Virus record (IMG/VR): IMGVR_UViG_3300008108_000098
Source: a virus
DNA length: 64,000 bases
Direction: 5' to 3' (one strand)
The notes under the pieces were generated by a model that made no database searches, had not been told where the DNA came from, and was given only the letters and a program-made list of their open reading frames with translations. Within the stretch, counting starts at the first letter, position 1. The number at the start of each line of letters is the position of its first letter. Made by a program: the position numbers and the translations under genes. Below, one piece after another: positions 27,721 to 63,800 of the stretch.

Positions 27721-27758
27721 GAAATATTTTGGGATATTCAAAATAATTTTTACATTTG
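27721..27758 (+). promoter_or_regulatory. class A promoter: GAAATATTTTGGGATATTCA element plus TACATTTG -7 box
   Basis: Matches the Bacteroidetes -33 TTTG / -7 TAnnTTTG architecture. Element recurs at 38790 and 41311. Confidence 0.55.
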
Positions 27759-38789: not shown

Positions 38790-38827
38790 GAAATATTTTG
38801 TGATATCATAAATAATCCATACATTTG
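38790..38827 (+). promoter_or_regulatory. class A promoter: GAAATATTTTGTGATATCATA plus TACATTTG
   Basis: Same element as 27721 and 41311. -7 box 17 nt before the ATG at 38844. Confidence 0.55.
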
Positions 38828-45930: not shown

Positions 45931-47088
45931 ATGAGAATTTTAGTCACTGAAAACCAATTATTAAGATTAATTGAAGAATCAAAACCGGGACCCCTTCAAT
46001 ACTTAGGTAAGAAATTAGCAAGTGCCGCTAAAGATGCATTAGGAATGACACCTAAGGTTACAGATCTAAGAGATCTCAGGTTTAAATATTTAAAATTAAA
46101 AGATGCAATTGGTAGGTTCAAATATGAGTATATAAAAAAGAATTCATCCAACAAATACGATGAATTGGTCTCAAAATATAAACTTGGATTAATTTCTTCA
46201 GATGATTTTATCAAAACTTTAGAGATAGGAACAAGAATAAACTTTATAAAACCCGTTACTAAAGTTTATTCATATAAAGGCGTGAAGTTTAGTGAAAAGG
46301 AACACGATGACATTATAAAAATTCTTGATCAAATTGATTACAGGGTAAATAATGGTGGTATAAACACAAATGAGGCCCAGGTACTTGGTTCGTTAGAAAT
46401 AAAAACAACAAGAGGAAATGAAAGTGATATAATTGGATATAACGATCAATGGGTTGATAATGTTGCCAAACAATATAATTGGGATCAGATATCCATCGAT
46501 GCTTGGAAGAGTGCTGGTGGATTTGCACCTGACGGAACATCAAATATTTATATCAACCTTCAAAAAATATATTACACAAAACCGGATTTGAGGTTCATAT
46601 TTTTTCATGAGTTTGCACACATGAAAGATCCGGCAATGATACCATCAGTATCACCTAAATATCGTAAAAATTATGTTCCAAAAGATTTTCCACTCACAAA
46701 AAAATATGAATTTCACCAAGCAGAATTGGTTGCAAATAGGGCATCTTTAGTAAATTCTATTGTAGACATAACGAATACTTGGTTAAAAAATAAAGTACCT
46801 AAACAAACCATTATATTAAAGTTACAAGAGTTGGTAAAACTTCTTCGACAAGGTAAAATTGATAAAGAATCTGTTGGAAAAGTTATCGGGAACAATGAGG
46901 CTGAGGGGTACATTTCAGATAAATTACATATCTTTTTTTCAAAAAAGAAAGAATTTCCTAAAGAAGTAAATAAAACCATAACAGATTTGGTTGTACAAAT
47001 AGACAGGATTATATTACAACTAAATAATCAAAGATTAAAGGAATCTGTACATTCTTCCGAGTCTATTATGGTGACCCATTTCCGTTAA
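45931..47088 (+). CDS. putative zinc metallopeptidase (HExxH), paralog of 44444..45658
   Basis: N-terminus MRILVTENQLLRLIEESK; motif FFHEFAHMKDP. Confidence 0.5.
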   Translation: MRILVTENQLLRLIEESKPGPLQYLGKKLASAAKDALGMTPKVTDLRDLRFKYLKLKDAIGRFKYEYIKKNSSNKYDELVSKYKLGLISSDDFIKTLEIGTRINFIKPVTKVYSYKGVKFSEKEHDDIIKILDQIDYRVNNGGINTNEAQVLGSLEIKTTRGNESDIIGYNDQWVDNVAKQYNWDQISIDAWKSAGGFAPDGTSNIYINLQKIYYTKPDLRFIFFHEFAHMKDPAMIPSVSPKYRKNYVPKDFPLTKKYEFHQAELVANRASLVNSIVDITNTWLKNKVPKQTIILKLQELVKLLRQGKIDKESVGKVIGNNEAEGYISDKLHIFFSKKKEFPKEVNKTITDLVVQIDRIILQLNNQRLKESVHSSESIMVTHFR

Positions 47089-47712: not shown

Positions 47713-47781
47713 ATGTTTAAATAATAAATAAATTTTGGGATATTGCGAATAATATTATATATTTGGGGTATAATACTAAAT

Positions 47782-49740: not shown

Positions 49741-50179
49741 TATGAAACTATATACAGAAGAACAAGTAAAGAACTTTCTTAAAGAAAGAACATTTATGAC
49801 AGAAGATGCTATTGATAAATTATGTGCTCCTTTGACACCAATAGAACTACCAAGTGATGAGTATATTGATGAAGTATTTCAACCAATGACAGAGTTACAC
49901 CAATATTACAAAGATGGGTTTATTAATGGTGCTAAATGGATGAAAGAACAAATACTTAACCAAAACAAATAATATGTCACAACAAACACCGGTGGAGTGG
50001 CTTGAGAAATTATACAAAGAAGGGATATTGATTCCCAAATCATTTGAATTGGCCAAACAAATGGAACAAGATATTATCTCCGAGTCATGGAACGATGGAA
50101 ATCTAATTGGAAGGAATGGATGGATCATAGAGGAATATAGCACGGGGAAACAATATTATAAGAAGAAGTATAAGGATAA

Positions 50180-50953: not shown

Positions 50954-51294
50954 AAATCTTAATCACCGAGCAACAGTATAATAGATTGATGGAAGGGTTT
51001 GTGGACATTCCGGTGGAGGAAGATATTACACTTGAACTATGGGAAGATAAGAATAGATTGGAACTATCCACAATAGTAATTCCCAAACATCTAAGAGGTC
51101 AGGGTAAGGGAACTGAGATAATGAATAAGGTTATTGAATACTCCGAACAAGTTAACAAACCGATCTATCTAACCCCTGACACCAGTTTCGGGGGAACATC
51201 TATAAACAGACTTAAAAGATTCTATAGAAGATTCGGATTTACAAAGAACACAGACCAAGAGGTTTCACATAGTATGGTGAGATATCCTAATTAA
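50950..51294 (+). CDS. GNAT-fold acetyltransferase-like protein
   Basis: N-terminus MKILITEQQYNRLMEGF; motif RGQGKGTEIM...FYRRFGF. Confidence 0.5.
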   Translation: MKILITEQQYNRLMEGFVDIPVEEDITLELWEDKNRLELSTIVIPKHLRGQGKGTEIMNKVIEYSEQVNKPIYLTPDTSFGGTSINRLKRFYRRFGFTKNTDQEVSHSMVRYPN

Positions 51295-51414
51295 GAAAGT
51301 CCTCACCTGTAATGGGTGGGGATAATTGGGAGAGAATAGAGAGATAGGTACCAGAAGACAGGAAAGATTTTCACTTCTTTAAAGGTTCACACTTTCCCGA
51401 ATAGATCCCCTGAA

Positions 51415-51432
51415 GGGGTCCGTCAGGACCCC
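51415..51432. other. perfect GC hairpin GGGGTCC-GTCA-GGACCCC
   Basis: Seen directly. Overlaps the CCCCTGAAGGGG hairpin at 51407-51418. Confidence 0.7.
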
Positions 51433-51682
51433 GTAAATTACCCCCGATTTATTCCGTCTAACTACCCTGAAAACCCTATAAAATTCCCCCTGTTTTTAGG
51501 TACATTTTGTCGTAGTTATTTTATATACAGATATAACCATATAAACTTGTTAAATTCCGTGTAGGATATATACCAGCCACGATTTGGGGAAAAAGTGGGG
51601 AAAAGTGGTAATATGTGGGGGATTGACCCTTGCGTGAATTAAGACCCATATTATAAAAATTTATATGCATAACTGTTATTGC

Positions 51683-51699
51683 GGGGTCCTTCGGACCCC
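51683..51699. other. perfect GC hairpin GGGGTCC-TTC-GGACCCC
   Basis: Same stem sequence as 51415. Confidence 0.7.
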
Positions 51700-51847
51700 T
51701 TCAGGACTGACATAGTGTCCGTTTTCATTATATATACGTATATATTATATGTGTAATACGGTGAGTGTCATACGATTAGTTTCTACTTAACATAATCGTA
51801 GTTATAAGACACAATATAACCCCCTCACGTCATACGAACGGGATGAA

Positions 51848-51866
51848 GGGCCACCGAAGGTGGCCC
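51848..51866. other. perfect GC hairpin GGGCCACC-GAA-GGTGGCCC
   Basis: 8-bp stem, seen directly. Confidence 0.7.
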
Positions 51867-51911: not shown

Positions 51912-52006
51912 ATATTGTCTGGCAAATGTCATACGAAGTTTTTGCCAAACAATATTGGCGAGGACCAGTCTGACCCCAGTGTTGTCATACGAATGTTGTT
52001 TGGCAA
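51912..52006. repeat. IR-family copies: ATATTGTCTGGCAA ... TTGCCAAACAATAT ... TTGTTTGGCAA, with GTCATACGAA x2
   Basis: Seen directly. Same half-sites as the copies in the 52-64 kb block. Confidence 0.65.
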
Positions 52007-52018
52007 AATGGTCGGGTA

Positions 52019-52987
52019 TTAACTAAAGTCGATTTCGTATTTAGCGAACTGTTTTTTTAGGTGATCTTTAATTTCTCTATAAAGGTCCCAATCATCAGTT
52101 GCTGTAAGTGGTTTCCCGTCATACGACTCAAATGACGCAGTAAGTGAAATACTATAATCGGGGATGATGGTATTTGTTCGAGGGTCTATCAATGTTGCGG
52201 GATTATAGTCGTATTTGCTGGTTGAATATAGATATATACCATTACCCATACCCATTCGTAATACGTATGGTTTCCCTTTGTACATACCCTTGGATAATGC
52301 TTTGAGAATTACTTTTCCTCTTTTAACGGATCTTAATCTTTCCTCATCAAAATTATCAGAGAACTTAGCAATTAAGTTTTCAGGGATAACAAGTGTATTA
52401 CGAATGGCCTGTCTTTGAAAACTATTTAAATCATTAAACGACTTAACCTCTTGTTTGGGTACGTCGAATATGTTTTCCTGTATTGTTTGTCCGTGACCGA
52501 AAAGAAACTTCATATCTAATTCCGTCATCAAAGTTTTTGCAACCTGACTTGGAATTACTTCTCTTAAATTAAAATTAAACGAACCATTGTCATACGTTCT
52601 AAACCCTTCGATTGGATAATCCACATCTGGCATTGACATTGACATTTTACCATTACCTATGGCTTCATTGGTGAACAGGTGTAATCCATGTTTTATACCT
52701 AAGTTATATATGTGTACAAAAATATCGAACATACATGTGGGACTTATTTGTGCACCTCCGTCTAATCTAAAATCAGGTAATATTCTTAAGTTACCCTCAT
52801 GGGAACTACTTGAGCTGATTGCACATTTTGCTTCAGCGTTTTCAATTCTGAAGTCTAACGATGAAAAGTCTTTTGAAATTTTAAATATAGCCTCTTCAAA
52901 ATCAACCTTACTATCATTGAATTCAAATTCCTTCTTTGGTTCTTGGTTCTCCCCGTCTTCCATTAGTATGTCATACATCTTGATCAT
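52019..52987 (-). CDS. hypothetical protein
   Basis: Start moved to the first ATG (MIKMYDIL). The track start is a TTG inside the repeat. Confidence 0.45.
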   Translation of the reverse strand: MIKMYDILMEDGENQEPKKEFEFNDSKVDFEEAIFKISKDFSSLDFRIENAEAKCAISSSSSHEGNLRILPDFRLDGGAQISPTCMFDIFVHIYNLGIKHGLHLFTNEAIGNGKMSMSMPDVDYPIEGFRTYDNGSFNFNLREVIPSQVAKTLMTELDMKFLFGHGQTIQENIFDVPKQEVKSFNDLNSFQRQAIRNTLVIPENLIAKFSDNFDEERLRSVKRGKVILKALSKGMYKGKPYVLRMGMGNGIYLYSTSKYDYNPATLIDPRTNTIIPDYSISLTASFESYDGKPLTATDDWDLYREIKDHLKKQFAKYEIDFS

Positions 52988-53056
52988 AATAATAAATACT
53001 TTTGCCAAACAATATCTACCGTCTTCTTGGATCCTGAATCAGGAGACACTGTTTAA

Positions 53057-53083
53057 TAAAAAAATCCCAAGTGCAGACTTGGG
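53057..53083 (-). terminator. intrinsic terminator (minus): CCCAAGT-GCAG-ACTTGGG plus U-run
   Basis: 7-bp stem. A-run on the plus strand gives a U-run for minus-strand transcripts. Confidence 0.65.
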
Positions 53084-53149
53084 GGTCTACACGTTGGGAT
53101 TTAACGACCGATATATAATTAAAGGGCTTTAAAACCCTCAAATCATATA

Positions 53150-53338
53150 TTAGGCTGTTGCAAGGAGCTGATTGCGATAAGCAATTGCATTTCTCTTAGA
53201 AGAGAAATTCTTGCTGTATTTAGTTCCAGCTACACTTACACGTACACGATAGGATGAACCATCGAAGTACACATTGCTTGAAACCGGTACATAAGTAGTT
53301 TTAGTACGACGGTTTCGGTTGGTTGTTGATTTTTTCAT
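53150..53338 (-). CDS. AP2/integrase-arm-type DNA-binding domain protein (62 aa)
   Basis: YFDGSSYRVRVSVAGTKYSKNFSSKRNAIAYRNQL fits the 3-strand-plus-helix AP2-like pattern. Confidence 0.5.
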   Translation of the reverse strand: MKKSTTNRNRRTKTTYVPVSSNVYFDGSSYRVRVSVAGTKYSKNFSSKRNAIAYRNQLLATA

Positions 53339-53639
53339 ATAACATTTGGTTTATATTAAAATATAACATCCAAAAGTCATAAAAAAAAATATCCGGCAAC
53401 TTTTTTTAAAAAAGTTTTTGCCAAGCAATATCGCCCGATCATCTCCTCCCTCAGGGTTTCTTCTTATATCGAGAACCCCACTTGATGGACATGTATGCAT
53501 CATACCTGTGTCTCTTCATCCCATTGAAGAGAAAGTACACAAAGTAGTAATCCCAAATCCATTCCAACTCTTTAAAGAACTTCTTCATAAGCATAATTTT
53601 GCCAAACAATATCCGACAGACTCATCCTGATCTGAACCG

Positions 53640-53840
53640 TCAGATATTATTATGATACTCGAGATCTTCTTTGTTTATTGATTCAAGATTGAACTCATCG
53701 TACAATTGTTTCAGGACCCTGAGTTCACCTTCAGATCGATACTCTTCTTCAGGGCTGTCGAAATATCCTAAATCAATTCTGTTTGTTAATGAGTCGATCT
53801 TAGTAACGATCCACAACATTAAAATGGGTTTATTTATCAT
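53640..53840 (-). CDS. hypothetical acidic protein
   Basis: 66-aa ORF. Confidence 0.35.
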   Translation of the reverse strand: MINKPILMLWIVTKIDSLTNRIDLGYFDSPEEEYRSEGELRVLKQLYDEFNLESINKEDLEYHNNI

Positions 53841-53886
53841 GATATAATAGTTTTACAATTTTATGGGACAAAAAAAAGGACTCTTG

Positions 53887-54474
53887 TTAGAGTCCGTGTA
53901 AAGCTGGATGAATCTTTCCTTTTACTCCCCTTGGTCGATACTTACCCTCCTCATCGATGTAGAAGTCAATAATCAATCCAACCACCTTACGGTTAACTCT
54001 TGCCACATACAGTGTATATGACCCATCTCCAATTCCTGAACGAGTCACCACACCATTTTCATATGAACCCCACTCAAGTTTTGCTAAAGTGATCTTACAC
54101 ATCTTCAGGTACCAATCGTCCCCGTCTTTGGTGACAGGAAGCTCGAACGGTCTTCCATCATATGTTTCTGTTGGTACATCCATATCAATACCGTCGACTC
54201 TGTAAGTTTCCTTACTGAAGATACCGGCCTGACCTGAATCAACACCAATCTCAGCAGAATACTTTCTCCACGTGAGATCCTGATCAAGATAATCCTCGTG
54301 GATAGCTGTTAGATACGCAATTCTGTTGCCCCAACCATCTGTTTCCATTTCAGTGGCATTAGCAACATAGGATCCAGGTAATACATTCTTTACAATGGCT
54401 TGGCACCAAGTTGGAATGGTGTAGCAGGGATCGGATACTACTACTTCTTTTCCGAGTGTGATTTTGTTTGTCAT
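53887..54474 (-). CDS. hypothetical protein
   Basis: 195 aa. Start embedded in the conserved TATTCGTATGACA context. Confidence 0.5.
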   Translation of the reverse strand: MTNKITLGKEVVVSDPCYTIPTWCQAIVKNVLPGSYVANATEMETDGWGNRIAYLTAIHEDYLDQDLTWRKYSAEIGVDSGQAGIFSKETYRVDGIDMDVPTETYDGRPFELPVTKDGDDWYLKMCKITLAKLEWGSYENGVVTRSGIGDGSYTLYVARVNRKVVGLIIDFYIDEEGKYRPRGVKGKIHPALHGL

Positions 54475-54479
54475 ACGAA

Positions 54480-54710
54480 TCAGGGTTTTAATGTTTCTAA
54501 TATTCTTTCGTAAATCTTTCTTGTTAAAGAACTGTCCACTGTTCCACCAGGTATTACACGGTCCCTACAGACGATATCACCTGATAAACAATCAACCTCT
54601 TTTACCAAAACAGAATCAAAAAGTATTGGAGATGGGAATCTAACAATACCCTTTGTTCCTTTTGATAATCCAACTTGGAGTGCTTCATTTCTAAGCTCTA
54701 AGAATTCCAT
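54480..54710 (-). CDS. hypothetical protein
   Basis: 76-aa ORF. Confidence 0.35.
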   Translation of the reverse strand: MEFLELRNEALQVGLSKGTKGIVRFPSPILFDSVLVKEVDCLSGDIVCRDRVIPGGTVDSSLTRKIYERILETLKP

Positions 54711-54746
54711 ATGATAAAGGTATTACATTAACTGGAATATTCCAAA

Positions 54747-55247
54747 TTAATTTGTGATATTTTTATAGATGCTTTCGTACTTCTTGATATTCTCCTGAAT
54801 TTCAACATCCATAGCTTTTACTAACTTGGAATATGCTTTATCCATAAAGTCCTGATTGCCAGACAATTTATCAAGATCACCGTCCCAAAACTCGAGGTTA
54901 TCTACAATGACACGTATATCCTTAGTTGTCTTATCAGTTCTAAAAAATGGACAACGAGCGTAGATATATTCATTACGTACTATGTTGAGCTTGATGTCAT
55001 CGTTCGTCAGATTTTCCTTGGACCTGATTTGCATGATGATCACTTCAAGATCAGCAAGTTGCTGAATCTCTGTCTTTGTCTTCGTGATTAGATCCTGATA
55101 TGATTTAACAAACTGACCCAACTTCTTGGATTCCTTATTTGCCAGTGAACTTCCATAATCCATGAACCTGTCGTAAGAACTTTTTTCTTTTTCATTACCT
55201 ACGACATTTACAAACACACCTTCGATGTTCTTGTTTACTCTACCCAT
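54747..55247 (-). CDS. hypothetical protein
   Basis: 166-aa ORF. Confidence 0.45.
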   Translation of the reverse strand: MGRVNKNIEGVFVNVVGNEKEKSSYDRFMDYGSSLANKESKKLGQFVKSYQDLITKTKTEIQQLADLEVIIMQIRSKENLTNDDIKLNIVRNEYIYARCPFFRTDKTTKDIRVIVDNLEFWDGDLDKLSGNQDFMDKAYSKLVKAMDVEIQENIKKYESIYKNITN

Positions 55248-55478
55248 AATTGCAGTTTTTGTTTTTTGTTTTAAAAATTATTTTGCCAAACAATATTGGA
55301 CATCTCCTCAGATCTGTTGTTCTTGAGATGTTCAATGTACTCGAGAAACGTCATTCCGAATCCATTCGGAACATCGTGCAACCTCCTACCGACATTGAAT
55401 TCGTTAATCCAATCTTGTTCCGATGGTTGATCCACGGGATACGTGCTTGTCATGATGTTAATACTCATTTGTTATGAT

Positions 55479-55709
55479 TTAACGGTTATAAATTTTTTTA
55501 TATTCCTTATCGGTCAAGAACCTGAAAGGTGAAGTAATCTTCTTACCAAGAAGCAAGAGTCCCATCACATGGTCAATTTTCTCGATGTCATCAATAAGAG
55601 CTCGATTACCCTGTGCAGGATGTTTGATGTTGTTGATTGTTGTGTACAATCTTTCTTCGATGGAATCAACTACATAAGTTGACTCGAAGGTTTCTTTTTT
55701 CTTTGCCAT
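55479..55709 (-). CDS. hypothetical protein
   Basis: 76-aa ORF. Confidence 0.4.
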   Translation of the reverse strand: MAKKKETFESTYVVDSIEERLYTTINNIKHPAQGNRALIDDIEKIDHVMGLLLLGKKITSPFRFLTDKEYKKIYNR

Positions 55710-55721
55710 GGTTTTTTGTTT

Positions 55722-56140
55722 TTAAAATTTAGTTACGAAAAGTTTATAATCAACTGTACCGATTTCAATGAAACTAAGGTTATCCGCATTTACACTATCA
55801 TTATAAATCCAATTGGGATTCTCTCTCGGATTATATTTCAACCTAACACACATGGAGTACGTGTCATACGGATCAAACCCATCAAACTTTACATCTATCG
55901 AATCACACAAGATCCATGCACAAACTGTCTTGTGTTCACCGTCAAAGATCTTCTGTGCGGTCTTCTTATTGTTCTTGAGTGTACATCCTTTCATCACGAG
56001 CTGCGTTGATGTAGGTGATACATATTCCACCTCACCAGATGGATACTGTATTTTCCATTTCATATAATTCTGACCTCGCCCAAGATTAAAACGAACTTTA
56101 ATTTTCTTGCTCATGTTTTTGATCTGTGTCATACGAATAA
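55722..56140 (-). CDS. hypothetical protein
   Basis: Start moved to MTQIKNMSKK at the conserved TATTCGTATGACA motif. Confidence 0.45.
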
Positions 56141-56207
56141 TATTAGGAGTTACAAAGATATAACAGGGATACGAATATACCAAATATATCCCTGTTATTT
56201 TTTTATA

Positions 56208-56987
56208 TTATTGGATTACAAATTTATTTGTATCCACGAGTTTATTTCGGACCCGTTTAAATTTCAAACCGACAATGACGTTTTTATCATCTCTGTACCT
56301 CATGTCATAAAGATCTCCATTGATTACAGGACGACCCCAAAAGGTTTCGGGTACATCTTTAAAAACTACCGCCACCCTGATGTCATTGTTCAACATACTA
56401 ATACAGTCCTGAAAATTAGAACCACTGTAGGAAAATGTGATATCATAATTCGGATACTTCTTTACCAACTCCAAACGTTTAGCAACCTTTGTGTAATCGT
56501 AAAATTGAACGTCAGAAAAGATCTCCAAAATATTTTGTTTGCGACCGTCAACATCTAAGTAAAATGATTCAGGTGAGATGTCACTCGTGTTATTCAGACG
56601 TACACTGAAATGAAGATCTTCATTGATCGATCTTTGCCAGGCATTATAGATCTCATCGATCATCCACTTCATAAAGAATTCTCGATGTTCAAAAAACAGT
56701 TTTGTCTTCTTGATTCGTGATGCATTAATCTTGTTCTCCTTAACGTCCATTTTATTACGCCCTGATTCATTCAAACACAATTGTGTACATTCAGGGGTCC
56801 TTTTCGGACAAACTTCGTATCCACTCATTTTAGCAGGTGCGAGATAAAGTGTGTAAACAAGTTCGTCATACTTATAAGCTTTCTCATGTTTGGTCGAATT
56901 GTTAACCATTCCGAGGTATGACAAACCTGTCAACTTCTTTGCTTGTGCAATTGATTTGTATTCCATATAATTTGATTTGTGATACAA
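56208..56987 (-). CDS. hypothetical protein with Cys cluster (CPKRTPECTQLC)
   Basis: 259 aa. TATCTTTG -7 box upstream. Confidence 0.5.
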   Translation of the reverse strand: MYHKSNYMEYKSIAQAKKLTGLSYLGMVNNSTKHEKAYKYDELVYTLYLAPAKMSGYEVCPKRTPECTQLCLNESGRNKMDVKENKINASRIKKTKLFFEHREFFMKWMIDEIYNAWQRSINEDLHFSVRLNNTSDISPESFYLDVDGRKQNILEIFSDVQFYDYTKVAKRLELVKKYPNYDITFSYSGSNFQDCISMLNNDIRVAVVFKDVPETFWGRPVINGDLYDMRYRDDKNVIVGLKFKRVRNKLVDTNKFVIQ

Positions 56988-57016
56988 AGATATAAATTTT
57001 ATTTAATTCTACAAAA

Positions 57017-57628
57017 TTAATCCTCAGCTTTAGCAACTTCCTGCATGTCCTCAATAAATTGTGCAACAGATTTAGGGAGTTGTTTCAGGTCATATGACTT
57101 GATCATTTTAACAGGTGAATACTCTCCCTCATTTTTCATGTGATAAAATCTATCTTCTTTAGTTAAAGGATTTGTATTAAAACCCTCATAGATCTCGAAA
57201 GTATTCTTATCAAGGTCGATAACATAAGCCCACTCACAGAACAAACTATCTGCAGCAAAATCCTCGCTATTGTTCAGCCAAATAAGTTTATCCGTGTCAT
57301 CCTCATAAACCATGTTCAAAATATTTGCACCATTGTCACGAGTAAGGAGTGGATATTTTTTATGATACTTTTGTGCTTGTTCACCATTCATCCAACCATC
57401 AGAAGCGTCGATTTTTGCCAGAAAATTTTCCATCTCCTTTTGCTTCCGTGGACTCTTTTCAATAAATCGGCAACGTTCCAAAGTTTGTTTAAACTTTTCC
57501 ATGTCGGAGTTCAACAAAAATTCTACAACTGTTACCCCTTGTCCTGATGGATACCCATCCCATTGTCCGTACTGTGCGATCTTGGTTTCTCCGTTTGAGA
57601 TTACCATCGTGAGGTTTCTTGTTCCCAT
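57017..57628 (-). CDS. hypothetical protein
   Basis: 203-aa ORF. Confidence 0.5.
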   Translation of the reverse strand: MGTRNLTMVISNGETKIAQYGQWDGYPSGQGVTVVEFLLNSDMEKFKQTLERCRFIEKSPRKQKEMENFLAKIDASDGWMNGEQAQKYHKKYPLLTRDNGANILNMVYEDDTDKLIWLNNSEDFAADSLFCEWAYVIDLDKNTFEIYEGFNTNPLTKEDRFYHMKNEGEYSPVKMIKSYDLKQLPKSVAQFIEDMQEVAKAED

Positions 57629-57640
57629 GTGTGTGTTTAT

Positions 57641-57961
57641 TTAAAGTAAAGCAATGATTTGTTTTCTTTTATCTACGTATTTTACAAGTCGTTTGATAAA
57701 TGCATCGGCACCCTGTTTGCTCTTGAAGTAAGCAAAGAATTGACAGTACTCACTATCCTCGTCCGCAGATTTAGTAAGAACTTTGTTTTCTTTAAGACGT
57801 TCAACAACATCGTAATTACTTTCGCAGTTGTCAAATGTTTCGAGTGCTCTAAGATCTGCAGTGACGGTCCAATGTTTGTCATCACTACCCTTGTACGGTT
57901 TCAAACTTTCAGCCTTAAATGATCTCCCTTCTGTTGAGAGAGAATAGAATACTTTGTCCAT
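57641..57961 (-). CDS. hypothetical protein
   Basis: 106 aa. First gene behind a class B promoter. Confidence 0.45.
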   Translation of the reverse strand: MDKVFYSLSTEGRSFKAESLKPYKGSDDKHWTVTADLRALETFDNCESNYDVVERLKENKVLTKSADEDSEYCQFFAYFKSKQGADAFIKRLVKYVDKRKQIIALL

Positions 57962-57981
57962 GGTTATAATGTTTTAGGATA

Positions 57982-58039
57982 CAAATATACTACGTATAAA
58001 TTGATAATCCAAATTTAATTTGTTAAAATTTTGTGAAGG
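57982..58039 (-). promoter_or_regulatory. class B promoter: CCTTCACAAAATTTTAACAA element, -33 TTG, TATATTTG -7 box
   Basis: Bacteroidetes-type TTG-N20-TAnnTTTG. Near-identical copies at 59548, 60297, 62615 and 63605. Confidence 0.6.
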
Positions 58040-58066
58040 TGAATTCACCTGTGCCGGGATTCGTTG

Positions 58067-58119
58067 ATATTGTCTGGCAAGTCGAGTAGATCCCGTCCAA
58101 CCTATTTGCCAAACAATAT
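58067..58119. repeat. inverted-repeat pair ATATTGTCTGGCAA-N25-TTGCCAAACAATAT
   Basis: Seen directly. 31-nt right arm plus flank identical to 60418-60448. Confidence 0.7.
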
Positions 58120-58163
58120 CCTTAGCTGTTGCTGCGCACAGTAGAAGATGAGGTAACAGCAAT

Positions 58164-58191
58164 AAAAAACCCCCTGAAACCAGGGGGTTTT
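58164..58191 (-). terminator. bidirectional intrinsic terminator: A6-CCCCCTG-AAAC-CAGGGGG-T4
   Basis: Perfect 7-bp stem flanked by A- and T-runs. Confidence 0.8.
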
Positions 58192-58226
58192 GACACTTAC
58201 TAAACCATTAGAAAAAAAACCAAATG

Positions 58227-58460
58227 TTACTTCTTTTTCACAGTAACGATTTCGAATAGGTTCTTATAGTTGTTATTTATAATTTCATCTTGGTACATCA
58301 TAGCATCATCTAATGAAAGTTTGGACTTTGATATTTCCCAATTCTTCTTTGTTTTAGATGTCCATACTTCCCAATACTTTTTCGCATCGTCTAATTTGAT
58401 ACGAACGAAAACTTGTTTGGAGTGATCAAACAATGCTTTTCTTTTTTCTGGTTCTACCAT
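58227..58460 (-). CDS. hypothetical protein
   Basis: Start set to the ATG (MVEPEK). The track start is a TTG. Confidence 0.4.
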   Translation of the reverse strand: MVEPEKRKALFDHSKQVFVRIKLDDAKKYWEVWTSKTKKNWEISKSKLSLDDAMMYQDEIINNNYKNLFEIVTVKKK

Positions 58461-58646
58461 ACGTTTGTTTTTTTGGTTATGCAAAAGTAGTGAAATATAT
58501 TAAATAAACAATAAAATATTTTAAATGTTTAATTTTAGGTAAAAAAAAACTAAACAAATCTTTTATCTAATTGATTACCATTGTCATACGAATTGCCAAA
58601 CAACTTGTGCGATCGGATTTCCCGCTGCGGGTTTTAGGTAATACAA

Positions 58647-58673
58647 ATAAAAAGGGACACCTTTCGGTGCCCC
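58647..58673 (-). terminator. intrinsic terminator (minus): GGGACACC-TTTC-GGTGCCCC
   Basis: Stem with one mismatch. A-run on the plus strand. Confidence 0.6.
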
Positions 58674-58704
58674 TCTGTTCTTACTAACACTATTCACAAC
58701 AAAC

Positions 58705-59490
58705 TTAAATCAAACGAAGATTCAACTTCTCATTTTCCCTACGGCGATAATTGTAAATGTCCTCAATCATCACAGAGTAAGCTCTCTTATCACCGCAAAG
58801 ATGAATTGAACCCGGACGAAGTTTAACCTTATGGATAAATTCATCAAACTTAAATCCCTTCTTCTTCTCGGCAATAGTGAGAATTGCTCTCACAAAGTTT
58901 GACTTATTGTACCCCTTTTCAAAGTAAGGTTTAATTTCAAGAAGGTGATTTGCCCACTTCTCAGCGGTTTTCACACTTGCGATATTAAACTTACCTTTTT
59001 GGAATTGCTCCGTACTTGGATGCTTTGTTCCGCTATTTTGCAGAAGCATCATTCTTTCGGTAAGTGAGAACATTGGGTACTTATCACCAAACTCTTGGAG
59101 AATTTGGAAGTTCTCATTTCCCATTTCGGAGTAACCATGAATATAATCGTTCTTACGAACTTTCTTCTTCCACATATTATATTTGAGGAAGGCGTCAAAG
59201 ATACCCTTTTTGGTGAGAGGAATTTCCTCATCAATTACATAATACACACCAACACCCGCGAGTCTTGCTGCGGACAATCTATGTTGTCCATCGGCAGTCC
59301 AATGAACACCATTCTTATCTTTTCTTGTTACAACAATAGGTTCAGTATAACGAAACCCATTGACCTTCATGTCATCAGCGATTTCACGAATTTGGTTTTG
59401 AGATTGAGAATCCGTGATTTCACGATTAACTTTTACGAGTTGAAATCTATCAAGATTCGTTTCGTAGAGAATACTTTTATTCTTACTCAT
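58705..59490 (-). CDS. ParB-like nuclease (ParB/Srx) domain protein
   Basis: Motifs YTEPIVVTR ... ADGQHRLSAARLAGV. Confidence 0.65.
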   Translation of the reverse strand: MSKNKSILYETNLDRFQLVKVNREITDSQSQNQIREIADDMKVNGFRYTEPIVVTRKDKNGVHWTADGQHRLSAARLAGVGVYYVIDEEIPLTKKGIFDAFLKYNMWKKKVRKNDYIHGYSEMGNENFQILQEFGDKYPMFSLTERMMLLQNSGTKHPSTEQFQKGKFNIASVKTAEKWANHLLEIKPYFEKGYNKSNFVRAILTIAEKKKGFKFDEFIHKVKLRPGSIHLCGDKRAYSVMIEDIYNYRRRENEKLNLRLI

Positions 59491-59547
59491 AGTAAGTGAT
59501 GTTCAGAACACCTGTCCCCGTGTTTGTTGTGAATTTGTTTACGAGTA

Positions 59548-59618
59548 CAAATATATAACATTAATAACTCCAATCCAAATTTATTTTTTTATATTCTGTT
59601 AAAATAATGTTAAGGTAA
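59548..59618 (-). promoter_or_regulatory. class B promoter (TATATTTG) with degenerate upstream element
   Basis: Plus-strand CAAATATA at 59548-59555. 5' UTR shares AAACACGGGGACAGGTNTTCTGAACA with the 63566 copy. Confidence 0.5.
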
Positions 59619-59672
59619 TACAAATGATATCTTGATGACACCAGTCTGATCGCCTGGGCTGCCTGGGCAATG

Positions 59673-59725
59673 TTGTTTGGCAAATTGATCTACTCGAGAT
59701 CTCCTCACTGTTAATTGCCAAACAA
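59673..59725. repeat. degenerate IR pair TTGTTTGGCAA-N31-TTGCCAAACAA
   Basis: Spacer contains GATCTACTCGAG, the reverse complement of the spacer in the 58067 copy. Confidence 0.55.
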
Positions 59726-59762
59726 ATTTCGTAATCCGATGACGATCGTCAACATCTTGGAA

Positions 59763-59792
59763 ATAAAAAAGGGAGATACGAAATGTATCTCC
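59763..59792 (-). terminator. intrinsic terminator (minus): GGGAGATAC-GAAAT-GTATCTCCC
   Basis: Perfect 9-bp stem with A-run. Confidence 0.75.
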
Positions 59793-59872
59793 CAAACAAA
59801 ACACCAAACACAGATTATGAACAACTAATAAAATATAGTTATATTATTTCAATAAATCAAGTGTACTATCAA

Positions 59873-60079
59873 TCAAATAGTTTTGAATGTACAATAATCT
59901 TCTAAACGATCTAATGAAATTCTACCATAGTTTGTTGAACTATAATAACCTTGAACGGAATACCTTTGTTTCCATTTGTTGAAGGACTCCATCATTTGTT
60001 TCTTTGATGGATATGTCCACTTGTCGAACTCAATAGTAAAACCATCGGGTGACAATACTTGATACTTTTTATTTTTCAT
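59873..60079 (-). CDS. hypothetical protein (68 aa)
   Basis: Start set at MKNKKYQ. 11-nt overlap with the upstream gene. Confidence 0.4.
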   Translation of the reverse strand: MKNKKYQVLSPDGFTIEFDKWTYPSKKQMMESFNKWKQRYSVQGYYSSTNYGRISLDRLEDYCTFKTI

Positions 60080-60278
60080 CTTCTTGTGTTTTAATAATTG
60101 TTTGTGAATATTCAACCTCAATTCGTGTATCCATATGTTGCATACCACTATATCGGTTTTGTCTATGAATTTCGACAACCGAATGTCCACCAAATGGTTT
60201 CCATCCTTCTTGAATAAATTCATTTACTTTTCTTGTCAGTTCTTCGGGAGAACGTGATGATACGATTTTGTATTCCAT
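60069..60278 (-). CDS. DUF1737-like small protein
   Basis: MEYKIVSSRSPEELTRKVNEFIQEGWKPFGG pattern. Confidence 0.45.
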   Translation of the reverse strand: MEYKIVSSRSPEELTRKVNEFIQEGWKPFGGHSVVEIHRQNRYSGMQHMDTRIEVEYSQTIIKTQEDEK

Positions 60279-60296
60279 TGTTATTAATTTAGATTA

Positions 60297-60354
60297 CAAA
60301 TATACAACGAATAAATTAATATTCCAAATAATAATTGTTAAAAATTTGTGAAGG
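60297..60354 (-). promoter_or_regulatory. class B promoter
   Basis: Contains TTGTTAAAAATTTGTGAAGG ... TTGGAATAT ... TATATTTGTA. Confidence 0.6.
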
Positions 60355-60389
60355 AAATCAATGGTTTCAGCCGATCTGATTCGGCGCCA

Positions 60390-60440
60390 ATATTGTTTGG
60401 CAAGTGAATATGGTCGTCCAACCTATTTGCCAAACAATAT
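60390..60440. repeat. IR pair ATATTGTTTGGCAA-N23-TTGCCAAACAATAT
   Basis: Seen directly. GC hairpin GCCGA-TCTGAT-TCGGC sits just upstream. Confidence 0.7.
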
Positions 60441-60473
60441 CCTTAGCTCACGGTACCCCAAATTGCACAAAAC

Positions 60474-60497
60474 AAAAAACCCCAGCAAGTGCTGGGG
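60474..60497 (-). terminator. intrinsic terminator (minus): CCCCAGC-AAGT-GCTGGGG
   Basis: Perfect 7-bp stem with A6 on the plus strand. Confidence 0.75.
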
Positions 60498-60524
60498 TAA
60501 ATCAAAAACACTATGAAAACAAAA

Positions 60525-61223
60525 CTAACTTTCCAACTCCAAAAGAGTTTTATATTCTTCTTCGGTAAGGTGTCGTGTATTTTCACTTCTTACTCCTTCC
60601 TTCTTCTTAATCAAAATACAATCACCTTGCCTAACAATCTTTTCAATACAACCCTTTGGAATATCAGTTTGAATTGTCCAAGCAATTGCGTCAATTGCCG
60701 TGATTTTACTTCCATAATCATCTTCACTACTATACCAACGATTTGTTGTTCTGTTATCGTTTGTTTCAAACACACTACGGGCGTCAATCCAAATCATATA
60801 CTCTCTATCGGTTGAGGTGTCTTTACACTTTACATAATAAACTGGTTGTGGTTTCCGCCAAGCGTTCTCAACTCCTTTACTCCAAACATCGCCATCTACT
60901 TTGTAAAGTTCATAAGTATCGTTGAACTCTTTTGTAATCAACTCACCACTTTGAGTTACCCAAGTAGTTTGTTTCTTCAAAGTTTCCTTATCAATCAATT
61001 TAGGTTTGACTTCTTTAACCAATCTTTCCAATCCAAGACAACCAACCGCCACTCGTCTCTGTTCTGTATTACGAAACAATGTGGCAATTTCTTTGAAGGT
61101 CATTGGAACAATATCGTTCCAAATATCTTCAATCTCTTTCATTGGACATTCGTTATATTTCAATTTCAAAAGGCGACAACCTTCGTTGTACGGAAATTCA
61201 ATGTTGTTGATAATAATTTTCAT
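60525..61223 (-). CDS. hypothetical protein
   Basis: 232-aa ORF. Confidence 0.5.
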   Translation of the reverse strand: MKIIINNIEFPYNEGCRLLKLKYNECPMKEIEDIWNDIVPMTFKEIATLFRNTEQRRVAVGCLGLERLVKEVKPKLIDKETLKKQTTWVTQSGELITKEFNDTYELYKVDGDVWSKGVENAWRKPQPVYYVKCKDTSTDREYMIWIDARSVFETNDNRTTNRWYSSEDDYGSKITAIDAIAWTIQTDIPKGCIEKIVRQGDCILIKKKEGVRSENTRHLTEEEYKTLLELES

Positions 61224-61244
61224 TTGTTTTGTTTTTAATTGTTT

Positions 61245-61925
61245 TTAATCTTCGCTTGGTCTGTAAATAGTAAAACTGCGACTGACTTGAATTGTAATAC
61301 CTTTCTTTGTGAACTCCATATCTGTTTCACTATTTTCCAAGTTAGTAGTCCAATTAAACCACTCACTCGCCTCGCCATTAGTATCTTCGTTTGTGAAAGT
61401 ATGAGTGTCGGCTTCATATTCAAACTTTTTCAAAAGTTTATCAATGATATTAGCTTCATCATTGTTAATCACACAATCAATTTTGTAATTAACATTCTTC
61501 TCGCCATCACCGCCATTCATACTACCAATCTTTGATTGTAATACTTCCTTTTCTTCTTTACTCAAAACAACTTCAAAAGTATCAGTAAAGGTTTCACTAA
61601 ACTCAGCCTGAGCGTCTTTGTGATAATCAAAGTCAGGTTCATCTTCATCATCATTAAATGTAATGATAACCTTACCAGCTTCACCCATATAGTAGCCATC
61701 ACTATTCACATAGAACTCCACACGCTTAAACACTTCGTCCTCAAAGAAATTTTTAAGTTCTTCTGTTTTCTTATTACTAATCTTCTTTGCTTTACTATCG
61801 TAAAAATTAAATTCATAGTCGTTCATACTATCGCCACCAGCGGAAAATTCCATTTCACACTCAGCGACTTTTGCTTCTTTCCAAAGCAACATTTCGGGGG
61901 TAAGTTTCAAGTTTTCAGTTTGCAT
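61245..61925 (-). CDS. highly acidic protein
   Basis: Asp/Glu/Phe-rich. Start trimmed to MQTENLK. Confidence 0.45.
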   Translation of the reverse strand: MQTENLKLTPEMLLWKEAKVAECEMEFSAGGDSMNDYEFNFYDSKAKKISNKKTEELKNFFEDEVFKRVEFYVNSDGYYMGEAGKVIITFNDDEDEPDFDYHKDAQAEFSETFTDTFEVVLSKEEKEVLQSKIGSMNGGDGEKNVNYKIDCVINNDEANIIDKLLKKFEYEADTHTFTNEDTNGEASEWFNWTTNLENSETDMEFTKKGITIQVSRSFTIYRPSED

Positions 61926-62313
61926 GAATTTTGTTATTAAGTTGTTGAACAATAAGTTTTCCTTCTTCGGTATCAAGTTCTTTTACTCCATTACACATCC
62001 AGGGTTGGACTTCCAAATGTTTCAAATAATCTTGTGGTGTTGGTACGAACTTCATACGAAAGTCCTCTGCGATATGTAACATCGCCACATCAACTACATC
62101 AACACTTTTGCCATCACTATTAGTGATATTGTAACCAAAAATTTTTGGTACAATAGTATAAGCGAACCAAGTGTTATGAGTAAGGAGCCGTGAACTATTA
62201 TTGTTCATTGTCGCTTTTGGACTATCAATCAATTCGTGGATAGCGAGGTAATCTTCTACTTTACCACCCCAACGCTTGACCGAAGATTTTGAATGAATGA
62301 GAGGATTTGCCAT
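61915..62313 (-). CDS. hypothetical protein
   Basis: 132-aa ORF. Confidence 0.45.
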   Translation of the reverse strand: MANPLIHSKSSVKRWGGKVEDYLAIHELIDSPKATMNNNSSRLLTHNTWFAYTIVPKIFGYNITNSDGKSVDVVDVAMLHIAEDFRMKFVPTPQDYLKHLEVQPWMCNGVKELDTEEGKLIVQQLNNKIHAN

Positions 62314-62331
62314 AGTGTTTTGTTTTGTTGG

Positions 62332-62595
62332 TTAATCCCAAACTCTTTCAATAGTTTGTGTAAATGGATTGTACTCAACTTGTTTTCCCATTGACCACTC
62401 ACCTTTTTCAATTTTCAATGTTTGGTGTTCATTACTGAATGAGCCGTCAGGTTGTTCGTGTTTCAACAAACTATCTTTTGTTACAACCAGATCAGTAAAT
62501 TCGGTTTCCGTTTCATCAATTTTGAAATCACCATACAAAGTGTGTTGATTTACTCCTTCACCTTTGAGGAGCGTGTGTTTCTTTTTTGCTTTCAT
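62332..62595 (-). CDS. hypothetical protein (87 aa)
   Basis: First gene behind a class B promoter. Confidence 0.4.
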   Translation of the reverse strand: MKAKKKHTLLKGEGVNQHTLYGDFKIDETETEFTDLVVTKDSLLKHEQPDGSFSNEHQTLKIEKGEWSMGKQVEYNPFTQTIERVWD

Positions 62596-62614
62596 TGTTT
62601 AATAATTTAGAATA

Positions 62615-62672
62615 CAAATATAAAGATAATAAATGAATAAAACAAATTTATTTTGTTAAAATTTTGTGAAGG
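62615..62672 (-). promoter_or_regulatory. class B promoter
   Basis: Contains TTGTTAAAATTTTGTGAAGG ... TATATTTGTATTC. Confidence 0.6.
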
Positions 62673-62698
62673 AAGAAGACAGGTGTGGCCCAGTTTTG

Positions 62699-62800
62699 AT
62701 ATTGTCTGGCAACCCCTTCCACATCTGTCCCTGTCATACGAATCTTTGCCAAACAATATCGGCGCATGCGCACGCTGCGATCGACAGCAACTTCAGAGCA
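62699..62800. repeat. IR pair with GTCATACGAA, then GC-rich palindrome GCGCATGCGC
   Basis: About 75 nt near-identical to 63663-63735. Confidence 0.7.
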
Positions 62801-62853
62801 TAAAAAAACCCCACCATTTCTGATGAGGTCTTTCTATTATGAACCACTAATGT

Positions 62854-63555
62854 TTATCTTTTAGTTAATATTGTTAAATCAGACACTTCAAAATATTCAT
62901 CATTCATATTTTTTGATTCGTAAACTTTTTTTGTGTCAAAATCTTTACCATCATAAAGGGTTGTTGGTAATAAAAATCGATAAACAATTTTACCCTCTGA
63001 CATTGTTTTCTTTATTTTCATTACATAATTAAATTTAGATGATTTTTTATTTAACACATCTTTTAATCTAACTCTTAATCCTCTATCAACAATATCTACA
63101 TTAGACTCGTCGATGTTTGTTATACTCTCACATCTAATTGTTTGTATTGTTAATTCACCTTCAATATTTTTTAATTTATTAAAATCGGATTCATCTATAA
63201 CATAACCAGTAATTTTTTTAAATTCAACAGGGTCTTGTCTAATAGCAGGATATTTGTAATAATTATCTAATTCATCAATTAATAAAACATAATAATTTTT
63301 ATTCTCAAAATTTAAATTTTTGATTTGAATCTTTGTAAAATTAACCGAACCATAAAACATATAATTAAGTTTTTTTGGGTATATCATATTTTCATTACCC
63401 ACCCATATTCCCATATCGGTATTATATTTCCATCCAGTTGATTTAAGAATCGGTTGATACTCACCACTCCAAGTTGGGATTGTTGTATTAACTCTGTCTT
63501 GTCCGTATGATACGAACGATACTAAAACCATTGTTAATACTAATAACTTTTTCAT
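62854..63555 (-). CDS. secreted protein (N-terminal signal peptide)
   Basis: N-terminus MKKLLVLTMVLVSFVSYGQD. Confidence 0.55.
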   Translation of the reverse strand: MKKLLVLTMVLVSFVSYGQDRVNTTIPTWSGEYQPILKSTGWKYNTDMGIWVGNENMIYPKKLNYMFYGSVNFTKIQIKNLNFENKNYYVLLIDELDNYYKYPAIRQDPVEFKKITGYVIDESDFNKLKNIEGELTIQTIRCESITNIDESNVDIVDRGLRVRLKDVLNKKSSKFNYVMKIKKTMSEGKIVYRFLLPTTLYDGKDFDTKKVYESKNMNDEYFEVSDLTILTKR

Positions 63556-63604
63556 AATAGATTGTGTTCAGTAAACCTGTCCCCGTGTTTGATTGGTTAG
63601 AATA

Positions 63605-63662
63605 CAAATATACAATGTATATAATCATATTCCAAATAATAATTGTTAAAAATTTGTGAAGG
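63605..63662 (-). promoter_or_regulatory. class B promoter with conserved 5' UTR element
   Basis: TATATTTG box. UTR has AAACACGGGGACAGGTTTACTGAACA (plus 63566-63591). Confidence 0.6.
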
Positions 63663-63735
63663 TGTCATACGAATCTTTGCCAAACAATATCGGCGCATGC
63701 GCGCGCTGCGATCGACAGCAACTTCAGAGCAAAAA
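63663..63735. repeat. duplicate of the 62733-62800 segment (GTCATACGAA, TTGCCAAACAATAT, GCGCATGCGC)
   Basis: Seen directly, with only a few mismatches. Confidence 0.7.
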
Positions 63736-63738
63736 AAA

Positions 63739-63760
63739 GCCCCTCGTAGAAACGAGAGGC
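63739..63760 (-). terminator. intrinsic terminator (minus): GCCCCTCG-TAGAAA-CGAGAGGC
   Basis: Stem with one mismatch. A8 on the plus strand. Confidence 0.6.
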
Positions 63761-63800
63761 GTGGTTAAAAAGATTAACCTAAACCAACATCTTATGTCTT

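Follow-up and report, generated by a model that had tools for sequence, protein, structure and literature searches.

The minus strand of IMG/VR virus record IMGVR_UViG_3300008108_000098 carries, from position 64000 to 52019 of the 64,000-nt stretch analysed here (the window), a block of 23 densely packed open reading frames (ORFs) that is punctuated by a composite intergenic junction recurring in near-identical copies. We consider it probable, at about 0.7, that this block is an early or accessory region in which the junctions delimit promoter-driven, insulated units, two junction elements (A and C) are protein-binding sites, and recombination takes place at the junctions. The junction would cut the block into transcription units of one to four genes, each insulated by a terminator and driven by host RNA polymerase from a host-type promoter. 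Homologous recombination between junction copies (34-81 nt of near-identity) deletes, inserts and reorders whole cassettes. Comparison of near-identical strains shows that a 931-bp unit with a 233-aa gene is, to judge from assembled contigs, a cassette that is now polymorphic in natural populations.

Anatomy of the junctions

Six long intergenic junctions on the minus strand (57962-63798, Table 1) have one common order of parts. Read in the sense of transcription, a G+C hairpin with a T-run, the putative intrinsic terminator of the upstream unit, is followed by a GC-rich island, motif A (ATATTGTTTGGCAA), which in four junctions has an inverted copy (A') 23-33 nt beyond it, a second GC-rich spacer between A(-A') and element C, element C itself (CCTTCACAAAWTTTTAACAA), and a predicted promoter of the form TTTGG-N20-TATATTTG with a 17-57-nt leader ahead of the ATG. 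Element C consists of two TTMACAA direct repeats 11 bp apart and is fused to the -33 element. Within the junctions, terminator and promoter are not adjacent and lie 100-190 nt from each other.

Five of these junctions had been listed in the initial annotation, and all five are present where it placed them, with their parts in the order that it gave. Absent from it were the sixth junction (J58.6) and the strand-specific motif B (TCGTATGACA), of which the window has eight exact copies, all on the minus strand. B follows A in three junctions, stands between A and A' in the compact unit at the block end, and at 56127 and 54469 falls on a gene's start codon (ATGACA). Element C, described earlier as common to every junction, is exact in four of them, and the 59.6-kb junction (J59.6) has only a degenerate form (CCTTAACATTATTTTAACAG). 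The shared segments reported for the junctions exist at corrected lengths: 58094-58127 and 60415-60448 have 34 nt in common at 100% identity (not 31 nt), and J62.7 and J63.7 carry an 81-nt repeat of 96% identity (not about 75 nt). The spacer GATCTACTCGA does recur in inverted orientation (58082-58092 and 59687-59697), as an 11-nt match whose 12th base differs.

Neither this anatomy nor the abundance of the motifs is a product of chance. Motif A (TTGCCAAACAATAT, at most two mismatches) has 21 matches in the window versus 2.0 ± 1.3 expected, an approximately 10-fold enrichment, and 19 of the 21 fall within 51.9-63.7 kb. An exact copy at 46463-46476, inside a plus-strand gene and without a GC island, was treated as a chance occurrence. 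Element C has four exact copies, all on the minus strand, versus 0.13 matches expected at up to three mismatches. The pattern TTTG-N17-21-TAnnTTTG matches 14 times (4.8 expected), with seven minus-strand matches in 56.1-63.6 kb, each shortly before an ATG, and terminator-like hairpins number 15 (6.9 ± 2.8 expected), at least seven of them on the minus strand just 3' of gene ends. Below 56.1 kb the block changes style to short intergenic regions with a single forward A and no -33/-7 promoter. A search of 51-64 kb against Rfam at E ≤ 1 returned only two sub-threshold chance matches, and a scan of IMG/VR for exact element C gave four single, unrelated matches, none with motif A.

Bacteroidota promoters have the consensus -33 TTTG and -7 TAHHTTTG, with transcription starting 4-5 nt past the G (PMC6847099). 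The putative block promoters (TTTG-N20-TATATTTG) fit this sigma-A(Bfr) consensus, and the leaders are devoid of Shine-Dalgarno sequences, as in that phylum; sigma-70 -35/-10 promoters were not enriched (61 found, 51 ± 7 expected). Because of the promoter type, the leaders and the Flavobacterium-phage matches of the ParB-like protein, the window is probably part of an uncultured large phage with a host from the Bacteroidota. Related IMG/VR contigs of 200-335 kb from environmental metagenomes form an uncultured clade, and an identical ParB-like protein is encoded on contig Ga0568938_000001, of 178.6 kb. Searches for near and distant DNA similarity found no useful nucleotide match to the window in the phage collection, PHROG and Pfam scans of 20 large window ORFs identified neither the phage type nor a polymerase or sigma factor, and hallmark genes for structure or replication, from which the phage could be placed, are missing from the window.

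Gain, loss and reordering of cassettes

Over 10-20 kb, the window is matched at 99.7-100% identity by contigs whose ParB-like or DUF6915 protein is the same as its own; the ParB-like protein recurs unchanged on more than 80 contigs. The 931-bp unit is present in the window, L044 and L056 and absent from most of the 99.8-100% identical strains (L043, L045, L046, L048, L054, L055, L057, L058 and L059), in which the DUF932 gene is directly followed by the 87-aa gene across one chimeric junction. Window positions 64000-63663 correspond to L043 6328-6665 and positions 62812-60458 to L043 6585-8941, and the two segments overlap by exactly the 81-nt repeat. As the L043-type junction has the 63.7-type single-nucleotide polymorphism (GCGCGCGC) on its left and 62.7-type sequence (GGGGGACAGATG ... 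A') on its right, the crossover lies within the last ~40 nt of the repeat (GCGCATGCGCCGATATTGTTTGGCAAAGATTCGTATGACA, A plus B). Both haplotypes were seen in several independent assemblies (JGI, ENA, NCBI), and samples in which the two occur together include GCA_031545155.1, GCA_031545195.1, 3300008262 and 3300057212. In four assemblies the cassette appears as an orphan contig of 1.1-1.3 kb, which would be expected of a variable segment flanked by repeats.

The gain and loss of cassettes at the junctions predicted in the initial annotation is thus borne out, and gene order is not identical among relatives. Its analogy to the promoter-early stem-loop (PeSL) cassettes of T4-like phages (Arbiol 2010, PMC2839356; Comeau 2014, PMC4122927) holds for the topology of the 931-bp indel, which is that of ORFan192 in RB49 versus phi1, where a cassette is replaced by a single chimeric junction (PMC2839356).

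J60.4 is polymorphic as well. Most strains have an additional 92 nt at 60457/60458 (L043 8942-9033) with an extra A-like motif (GTAATTTGTTTGGCAAACAGATC) and 4.5 tandem copies of GGGTACTTC, and L044 is without 102 nt (60458-60559) that include the terminator of the 232-aa gene. The string GGGTACTTCGGGTACGAGTGG from the 92-nt insert recurs in a junction upstream of the window end (L043 about 4340).

Larger units are rearranged among relatives. The four-gene unit (62595-60525) is intact in relatives and precedes the ParB-like gene in the window, L010 and L040, follows it in L023, and is absent between DUF932 and ParB in L006, L018, L020 and L021. The DUF1737 and g57961 genes change place between relatives, and the order of units differs in L023, L040, L006, L018 and the L010 group. 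J63.7 is itself a mosaic, with an island like that of J62.7 (0.97), a promoter like that of J60.4 (0.83) and a leader like that of J59.6 (0.80-0.86). Phage recombination systems need no more homology than the 34-81 nt that the junctions share, a point also argued in PMC2839356, and recombinants would stay viable because each cassette is self-sufficient, with its own predicted terminator and promoter.

Motif A across the phage clade

Variants of GCCAAnnnA are the top over-represented 10-mers in every related locus except L041 and L042. In L023, whose ParB-like protein is 40% identical to that of the window, about ten junctions have the same order of parts (terminator, GC island, AAATTGTTTGGCAA, CGTATTACA, TTGCCAATCAAT, ~50 nt of GC-rich DNA, CCTTTAACAnnATTTTAACAAGATAAATTTGG, N19, TATATTTG). 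The order is also the same in L040, where compact A-B-A' units carry both arms in a variant of their own (TTGGTTGGC ... GCCAACCAA). On this comparison of predicted elements, the junction is a conserved, clade-wide design and more than a local duplication. Variants of A are uniform within a phage and differ at one or two positions between phages, and several variants coexist in L010. Motif A is missing from the -33/-7 promoters that lie elsewhere in the window, at 27728, 38797 and 47734. These plus-strand promoters (27728-27758, 38797-38827 and 47734-47765) have a different extended form (TTTGGGATAT ... AATAAT ... TAcATTTG), which suggests a separate promoter class outside the block.

Among 12 distinct phages, 254 A copies are in forward and 87 in reverse orientation; 62 of the 87 reverse copies partner a forward A, and 25 are solitary. 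From these counts we read A as a directional signal and A' as an accessory. The distance from a single forward A to the TTG of the -33 element falls into classes of 7-8, 16-19, 28-29 or 39 nt (L009, L010, L017, L018, L020 and L021), and these steps of about one helical turn are as expected of an upstream site that depends on the face of the helix. In the window, the distal half of C (TTCACAA) lies 17 nt from the -33 element, matching the position of A in relatives.

The arms A and A' show no covariation that would preserve pairing (within-phage permutation, P = 0.09), and their consensus sequences differ at position -5. Recognition by a protein is favoured over a selected hairpin because the arms neither covary nor match in consensus, and selection for an A/A' hairpin was dismissed for want of compensatory covariation. 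The inverted repeat, previously taken for a part of a PeSL arrangement, is instead a member of a conserved, orientation-biased and clade-wide motif family. The 36-37-nt A-A' spacers of L009, L010, L017, L020, L024 and L040 have AATAAAATCAAT or its reverse complement in common; several of them match the IHF consensus WATCAANNNNTTR, which the spacers of the window itself are without.

A (WWTTGNTTGGCAA; together with A' and B, YGTATKACA) and probably C would be protein-binding sites that mark this promoter class. A would most likely serve as an orientation-dependent upstream activator or recruitment site for a clade-conserved protein, for which there are two candidates in the block: a 62-aa basic AP2/arm-like protein (53150-53338) and the ParB-like protein (58705-59490).

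Candidate binding proteins and other proteins of the block

The 62-aa protein has an isoelectric point (pI) of 11.1 and belongs to a strikingly conserved family with 255 matches, 23 invariant positions and no Pfam counterpart, whose 40 aligned members are 66-92% identical. Copies of A flank its gene in all relatives. Its earlier description as AP2-like survives at the level of a weak fold match, with no Pfam or PDB sequence match behind it. The AlphaFold2 model (mean predicted local distance difference test 83.8) has a beta sheet and a C-terminal helix, and its top Foldseek matches, which include 3rmp, 3jtz, 3igm, 7et4 and 6sy0, are integrase arm-binding and AP2 domains at weak scores (E = 0.56-3, template modelling score 0.35-0.56). 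Some longer members of the family carry the annotation 'intein-encoded DNA endonuclease-like'.

For the ParB-like protein, described in the initial annotation as a nuclease of that type, a match to PHROG 12305 ('ParB-like partition protein', 1.4e-14) supports the name, with no Pfam hit at E ≤ 1 and no PDB sequence match; its best matches in cultured phages are to Flavobacterium phages, at 29% identity. Among the cassette products, which the initial annotation put forward as candidate host-takeover or anti-defence proteins, the DUF1737-like protein (DUF1737 match at 8e-6) and the very acidic protein (pI 4.35) proved to be as described. The 233-aa protein is putatively secreted, given an N-terminal hydrophobic segment, MKKLLVLTMVLVSFVSYGQ, a predicted signal peptide. 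Further assignments in the block are DUF6915, the GP88 family, an L5_gp82-like protein and a weak DUF4241 match, and the DUF932 gene runs off the window end.

Homologs of the 233-aa protein number ten among 5.8 billion proteins and stand in other phage contexts without motif A; these contexts did not identify a donor of the cassette. A homolog of 29% identity is encoded by L063, an unrelated Bacteroidota-type phage contig, and is framed there by a ~230-nt direct repeat with a promoter (TATTTTTG; 1300-1640 and 2420-2760). Cassettes framed by repeated promoter junctions may therefore be widespread in such phages. CACGGGGACAGGTnTnCTGAACA is present in the leader of the 233-aa gene as well as in that of the ParB-like gene, and GGGGACAGACTTACTGAACA, related to it, precedes the ParB-like gene in L023 (about 6180); this sequence may be a control element at the level of the leader.

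Weighing of the evidence and alternative explanations

Several observations count against the explanation proposed at the outset. One clean repeat-to-repeat event was found, and of the six remaining structural differences among strains, three map to coding sequence or away from the junctions. L044 has a 70-nt deletion inside an upstream gene (L054 4312-4381), and L046 is without 173 nt (49971-50143) and without 131 nt at the 3' end of the DUF932 gene (L054 7318-7448); because such deletions lie in coding DNA, the junctions are hot spots and not the sole variable sites. Rearrangement of whole units is expected in any case, because breakpoints inside genes are selected against. The A/A' pairs of the window lie 70-110 nt from the -33 element with no obvious phasing, and the spacing classes within one phage could partly reflect copy-and-paste ancestry of junctions and not selection. 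The promoters and terminators are predictions from consensus matches, and both proposed binders of A remain candidates. Finally, the window, L018, L020 and L021 have a terminator followed by a single A that abuts the start codon, with no -7 box, which fits a promoter role of A better than that of an upstream activator site.

Such a role is the core of the main rival explanation, which we regard as possible but doubtful: A would form the core element of phage-specific promoters of a second class (GC island, WWTTGNTTGGCAA, start 4-5 nt after TTTG), used by a host polymerase that a phage factor redirects or by a phage polymerase, so that the long junctions would be tandem promoters of the A type and the host sigma-A type, and A alone would drive the distal half of the block. 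A is strongly co-oriented with the genes, as promoters would be, and single copies stand 0-27 nt before start codons. Some of these abut the ATG (TTGGCAATG, TTGGCAAATG); their mRNAs would be leaderless and would begin at the place given by the -7 rule. In four phages a terminator, a GC island and A precede the ATG of the g52987 homolog in that order, without a -7 box, and a motif that is uniform per phage and varies slightly between phages recalls the specificities of phage polymerases or sigma factors. This explanation is contradicted by A' facing A head-on at 3-45 nt, which is senseless for promoters, by the coexistence of several A variants in one phage (L010), and by the ~10.5-nt spacing classes relative to the downstream -33 element, which are unexpected of independent promoters; the scanned ORFs of the window yielded neither a phage polymerase nor a sigma factor. 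A also misfits the host -7 element (G at -9 and AT at -12/-11, versus TAHHTTTG), and was rejected as a canonical -7 element on that ground. Two further promoter assignments were rejected: A as the -33 element of an upstream promoter with TAAATTTG as its -7 (spacing 16 nt, versus ~20 nt in block promoters), and A plus B as a sigma-54 promoter (TGGCAC-N5-TTGCW), whose spacing is invariant, whereas the A-B distance varies from 3 to 10 nt and the -12 GC is replaced by AC.

It is unlikely that A-spacer-A' represents selfish or structural intergenic repeats, similar to miniature inverted-repeat transposable elements (MITEs), repetitive extragenic palindromes (REPs) or bacterial interspersed mosaic elements (BIMEs) with a site for a bending protein, that have spread through intergenic DNA without a part in transcription and make recombination hot spots as a side effect. 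The inverted 14-nt arms with variable spacers, many with AATAAAATCAAT and several fitting the IHF consensus, the location of the units just 3' of terminators, as in BIMEs, and the stable folding of single strands (z -3.7 to -5.1 in four of five) are all in keeping with such elements. Selfish repeats would not, however, be mostly solitary and co-oriented with transcription, nor at a fixed spacing to the -33 element in several phages, nor kept in position beside orthologous genes whose proteins are only 40-70% identical, and neither target-site duplications nor, within the block, a transposase or REP-associated tyrosine transposase (RAYT) was found.

A still smaller chance attaches to A-B-A' units as integron- or lox-like sites at which a dedicated site-specific recombinase would excise and integrate cassettes as circles. 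The compact copies (51912-51955; L040, L023) do have 13-14-nt inverted arms around an asymmetric core of 9-14 nt, and the right end of the 81-nt repeat, like the similarity in three junctions, ends exactly at the 3' end of B. Moreover, two contigs of 1.1-1.3 kb, L050 (1076-1274; GCA_031545155.1) and L053 (899-1079; GCA_031545195.1), run from the cassette end through a 62.7-type repeat into C, promoter and cassette start, as expected of an excised circle or a tandem duplication; a misassembly would look alike. At their heads (262 nt in L050, 57 nt in L053) the two contigs carry unrelated sequence with no match among the loci compared, and both may be chimeric. The duplicated flank of 81 nt includes the GC island, which argues for homologous and not core-limited exchange, spacer lengths range over 3-45 nt, no integrase or recombinase domain was found among the block's 23 ORFs, and every cassette has its own predicted promoter, unlike integron cassettes.

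We give least credence to a role of A/A' in RNA, as a hairpin in read-through transcripts that would be an RNase III-type processing site or stabilise the mRNA: stems of 14-15 bp are predicted and repeats also lie between genes in the T7 early region, but the pairs are located between a terminator and the next promoter and would be transcribed through read-through only, the arms lack compensatory covariation (the same arm position is mismatched in L023 and L009/L010), and most A copies have no partner.

Comparison with known systems

The junction system described here shares with PeSL cassettes the reiteration of terminator-plus-promoter junctions between small accessory genes in a plastic region, with self-sufficient cassettes. 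In both, a stem-loop terminator stands upstream of a promoter in the same intergenic element (in six junctions here), and where one strain has a cassette between two junctions, a near-identical strain has one chimeric junction in its place; here, J60.4 contains two further indels. Mini-circles, another trait of PeSL cassettes, are a possible source of the junctions in L050 and L053, as are tandem duplication and misassembly. It differs in that the predicted promoter is of the Bacteroidota -33/-7 type, whereas that of PeSLs is of the sigma-70 type (-35/-10) and has an AT-rich region upstream, in that the junctions, at 240-380 nt, are by estimate much longer than the compact promoter-plus-stem-loop unit, and in that GC-rich islands, A(-B)-A' and C lie between terminator and promoter, with no PeSL counterpart. 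Hence the resemblance to T4-like hyperplastic regions pointed out earlier extends to the behaviour of the cassettes and not to the promoter, and nothing supports a T4-like affiliation of the phage. The junction system is PeSL-like in function and evolutionary behaviour, in another phage and host lineage, and not a strict member of the family.

Parallels for motif A come from other systems. KorB, a ParB-family protein of plasmid RK2, has palindromic operators reiterated at promoters, and P1 parS has box A and box B sequences around an IHF site. Similarly, a short site is reiterated here between genes with a ParB-family gene nearby, there are two motif types, and the spacer sometimes resembles a bend site; unlike the palindromic KorB operators, A mostly stands alone and has a preferred orientation, and no partition function is implied. 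MotA boxes of T4 are phage-specific upstream promoter elements that mark a temporal promoter class. A resembles them as a clade-specific, orientation-dependent element at fixed distance classes upstream of polymerase-binding elements, but is located further upstream (centre about -48, -58 or -69), with an intact -33 element, and also occurs in inverted pairs and alone beside start codons. Integron attC sites and REP/BIME elements are likewise imperfect inverted repeats that lie between genes, downstream of them, as do those bounding the small cassettes here. In integron arrays the cassettes are promoterless, end in attC and stand beside an intI integrase gene and attI. The cassettes of the block differ in having their own predicted promoter and terminator and an A co-oriented with transcription, and neither an integrase or RAYT gene in the block ORFs nor the R''/L''-L'/R' structure of attC was found.

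Other features of the block and its surroundings

The coordinates of the junctions, units and single signals are compiled in Table 1. Each A-only copy follows a GC-rich stretch, and its distance to the start codon downstream is 5-89 nt. At 56163-56195, a perfect 11-bp inverted repeat (ACAGGGATATA ... TATCCCTGT) overlaps the -33 element and spacer of the predicted promoter of the L5_gp82-like gene and may be a separate operator.

Table 1. Junctions, transcription units and single signals of the block, with predicted terminators and promoters (positions in the window)
Feature	Position	Strand	Parts and remarks
J63.7, upstream of 233-aa gene	63556-63798	-	long junction; terminator 63739-63760; 81-nt repeat copy 63663-63743 (GC island, A 63677-63690, B 63663-63672); C 63643-63662; -33/-7 promoter 63605-63636; leader with CACGGGGACAGGTTTACTGAACA 63565-63587
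Variable 931-bp cassette	62732-63662	-	C, promoter, 233-aa gene 62854-63555, terminator 62809-62830, 81-nt repeat copy 62732-62812
J62.7, upstream of four-gene unit	62596-62853	-	imperfect-hairpin terminator 62809-62830; A 62746-62759; B 62732-62741; A' 62699-62712; C 62653-62672; promoter 62615-62646
Four-gene transcription unit	60525-62595	-	87 aa; DUF6915, 132 aa; acidic, 226 aa; 232 aa
J60.4	60279-60524	-	terminator 60479-60498; A 60427-60440; A' 60390-60403; C 60335-60354; promoter 60297-60328
J59.6, upstream of ParB-like gene	59491-59872	-	terminator 59771-59793; A-like 59715-59728; A' 59670-59683; degenerate C 59596-59615; promoter 59548-59579; conserved leader 59500-59522
ParB-like protein gene	58705-59490	-	261 aa
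J58.6	58461-58704	-	terminator 58651-58676; A-like 58593-58606; B 58582-58591; AT-rich promoter with TACTTTTG 58482-58511
J58.1	57962-58226	-	terminator 58166-58191, with A-run before and T-run after the hairpin; A 58106-58119; A' 58067-58080; C 58020-58039; promoter 57982-58013
Two short promoter-only junctions	56153-57015	-	no terminator; 56985-57015 precedes GP88-family gene; 56153-56184 precedes L5_gp82-like gene
A-only signals	53002-55296	-	forward A 55283-55296, 53599-53612, 53418-53431 and 53002-53015
Terminators in A-only zone	53878-53895; 53066-53083		no -33/-7 promoter in this zone
62-aa basic protein gene	53150-53338	-	flanked by A copies
Block-end cluster	51912-52006	-	A'-B 51983-52006, then compact A-B-A' 51912-51955

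An ORF-free stretch of ~650 bp (51200-51860, minus-strand reading) adjoins the block at a convergent junction. About 270 nt of it are ~80% identical to L024 (19290-19700), whose proteins are only 37-80% identical to those of the window, and its core, TACCACTTTTCCCCACTTT, occurs in six IMG/VR contigs (L064-L069). In several of these contigs a perfect DnaA box (TGTGGATAA) lies upstream, and there are also GC hairpins (GGGGTCCGAAGGACCCC), an AT-rich run and B-type motifs in repeated copies (CGTATTACA / GTATGACA). The stretch has no Rfam match and is a candidate replication origin or other conserved noncoding element.

Significance

A further-reaching proposal, which we consider rather unlikely, is that WWTTGNTTGGCAA and B (YGTATKACA) form the recognition code of an undescribed transcription or DNA-organising system of large Bacteroidota phages. 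The code would be bound by the small AP2/arm-like or the ParB-like protein, would switch the promoter class or specify leaderless A-type promoters, and the A-B-A' sites would be preferred crossovers that release or capture promoter-equipped cassettes as circles. The possible novelty of the system is seated in the clade-wide, directional and helically phased motif A and its two companion motifs.

The junctions would extend the principle of portable promoter/terminator cassettes from the T4-like phages of Proteobacteria to unrelated, uncultured large freshwater phages with Bacteroidota promoters, and one cassette has been caught as a live presence/absence polymorphism in natural populations. They also account for the short orphan contigs on which accessory genes of this group turn up in metagenome assemblies. 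For the study of gene regulation in these phages, they provide defined cis elements (A, B and C) together with two candidate binding proteins.

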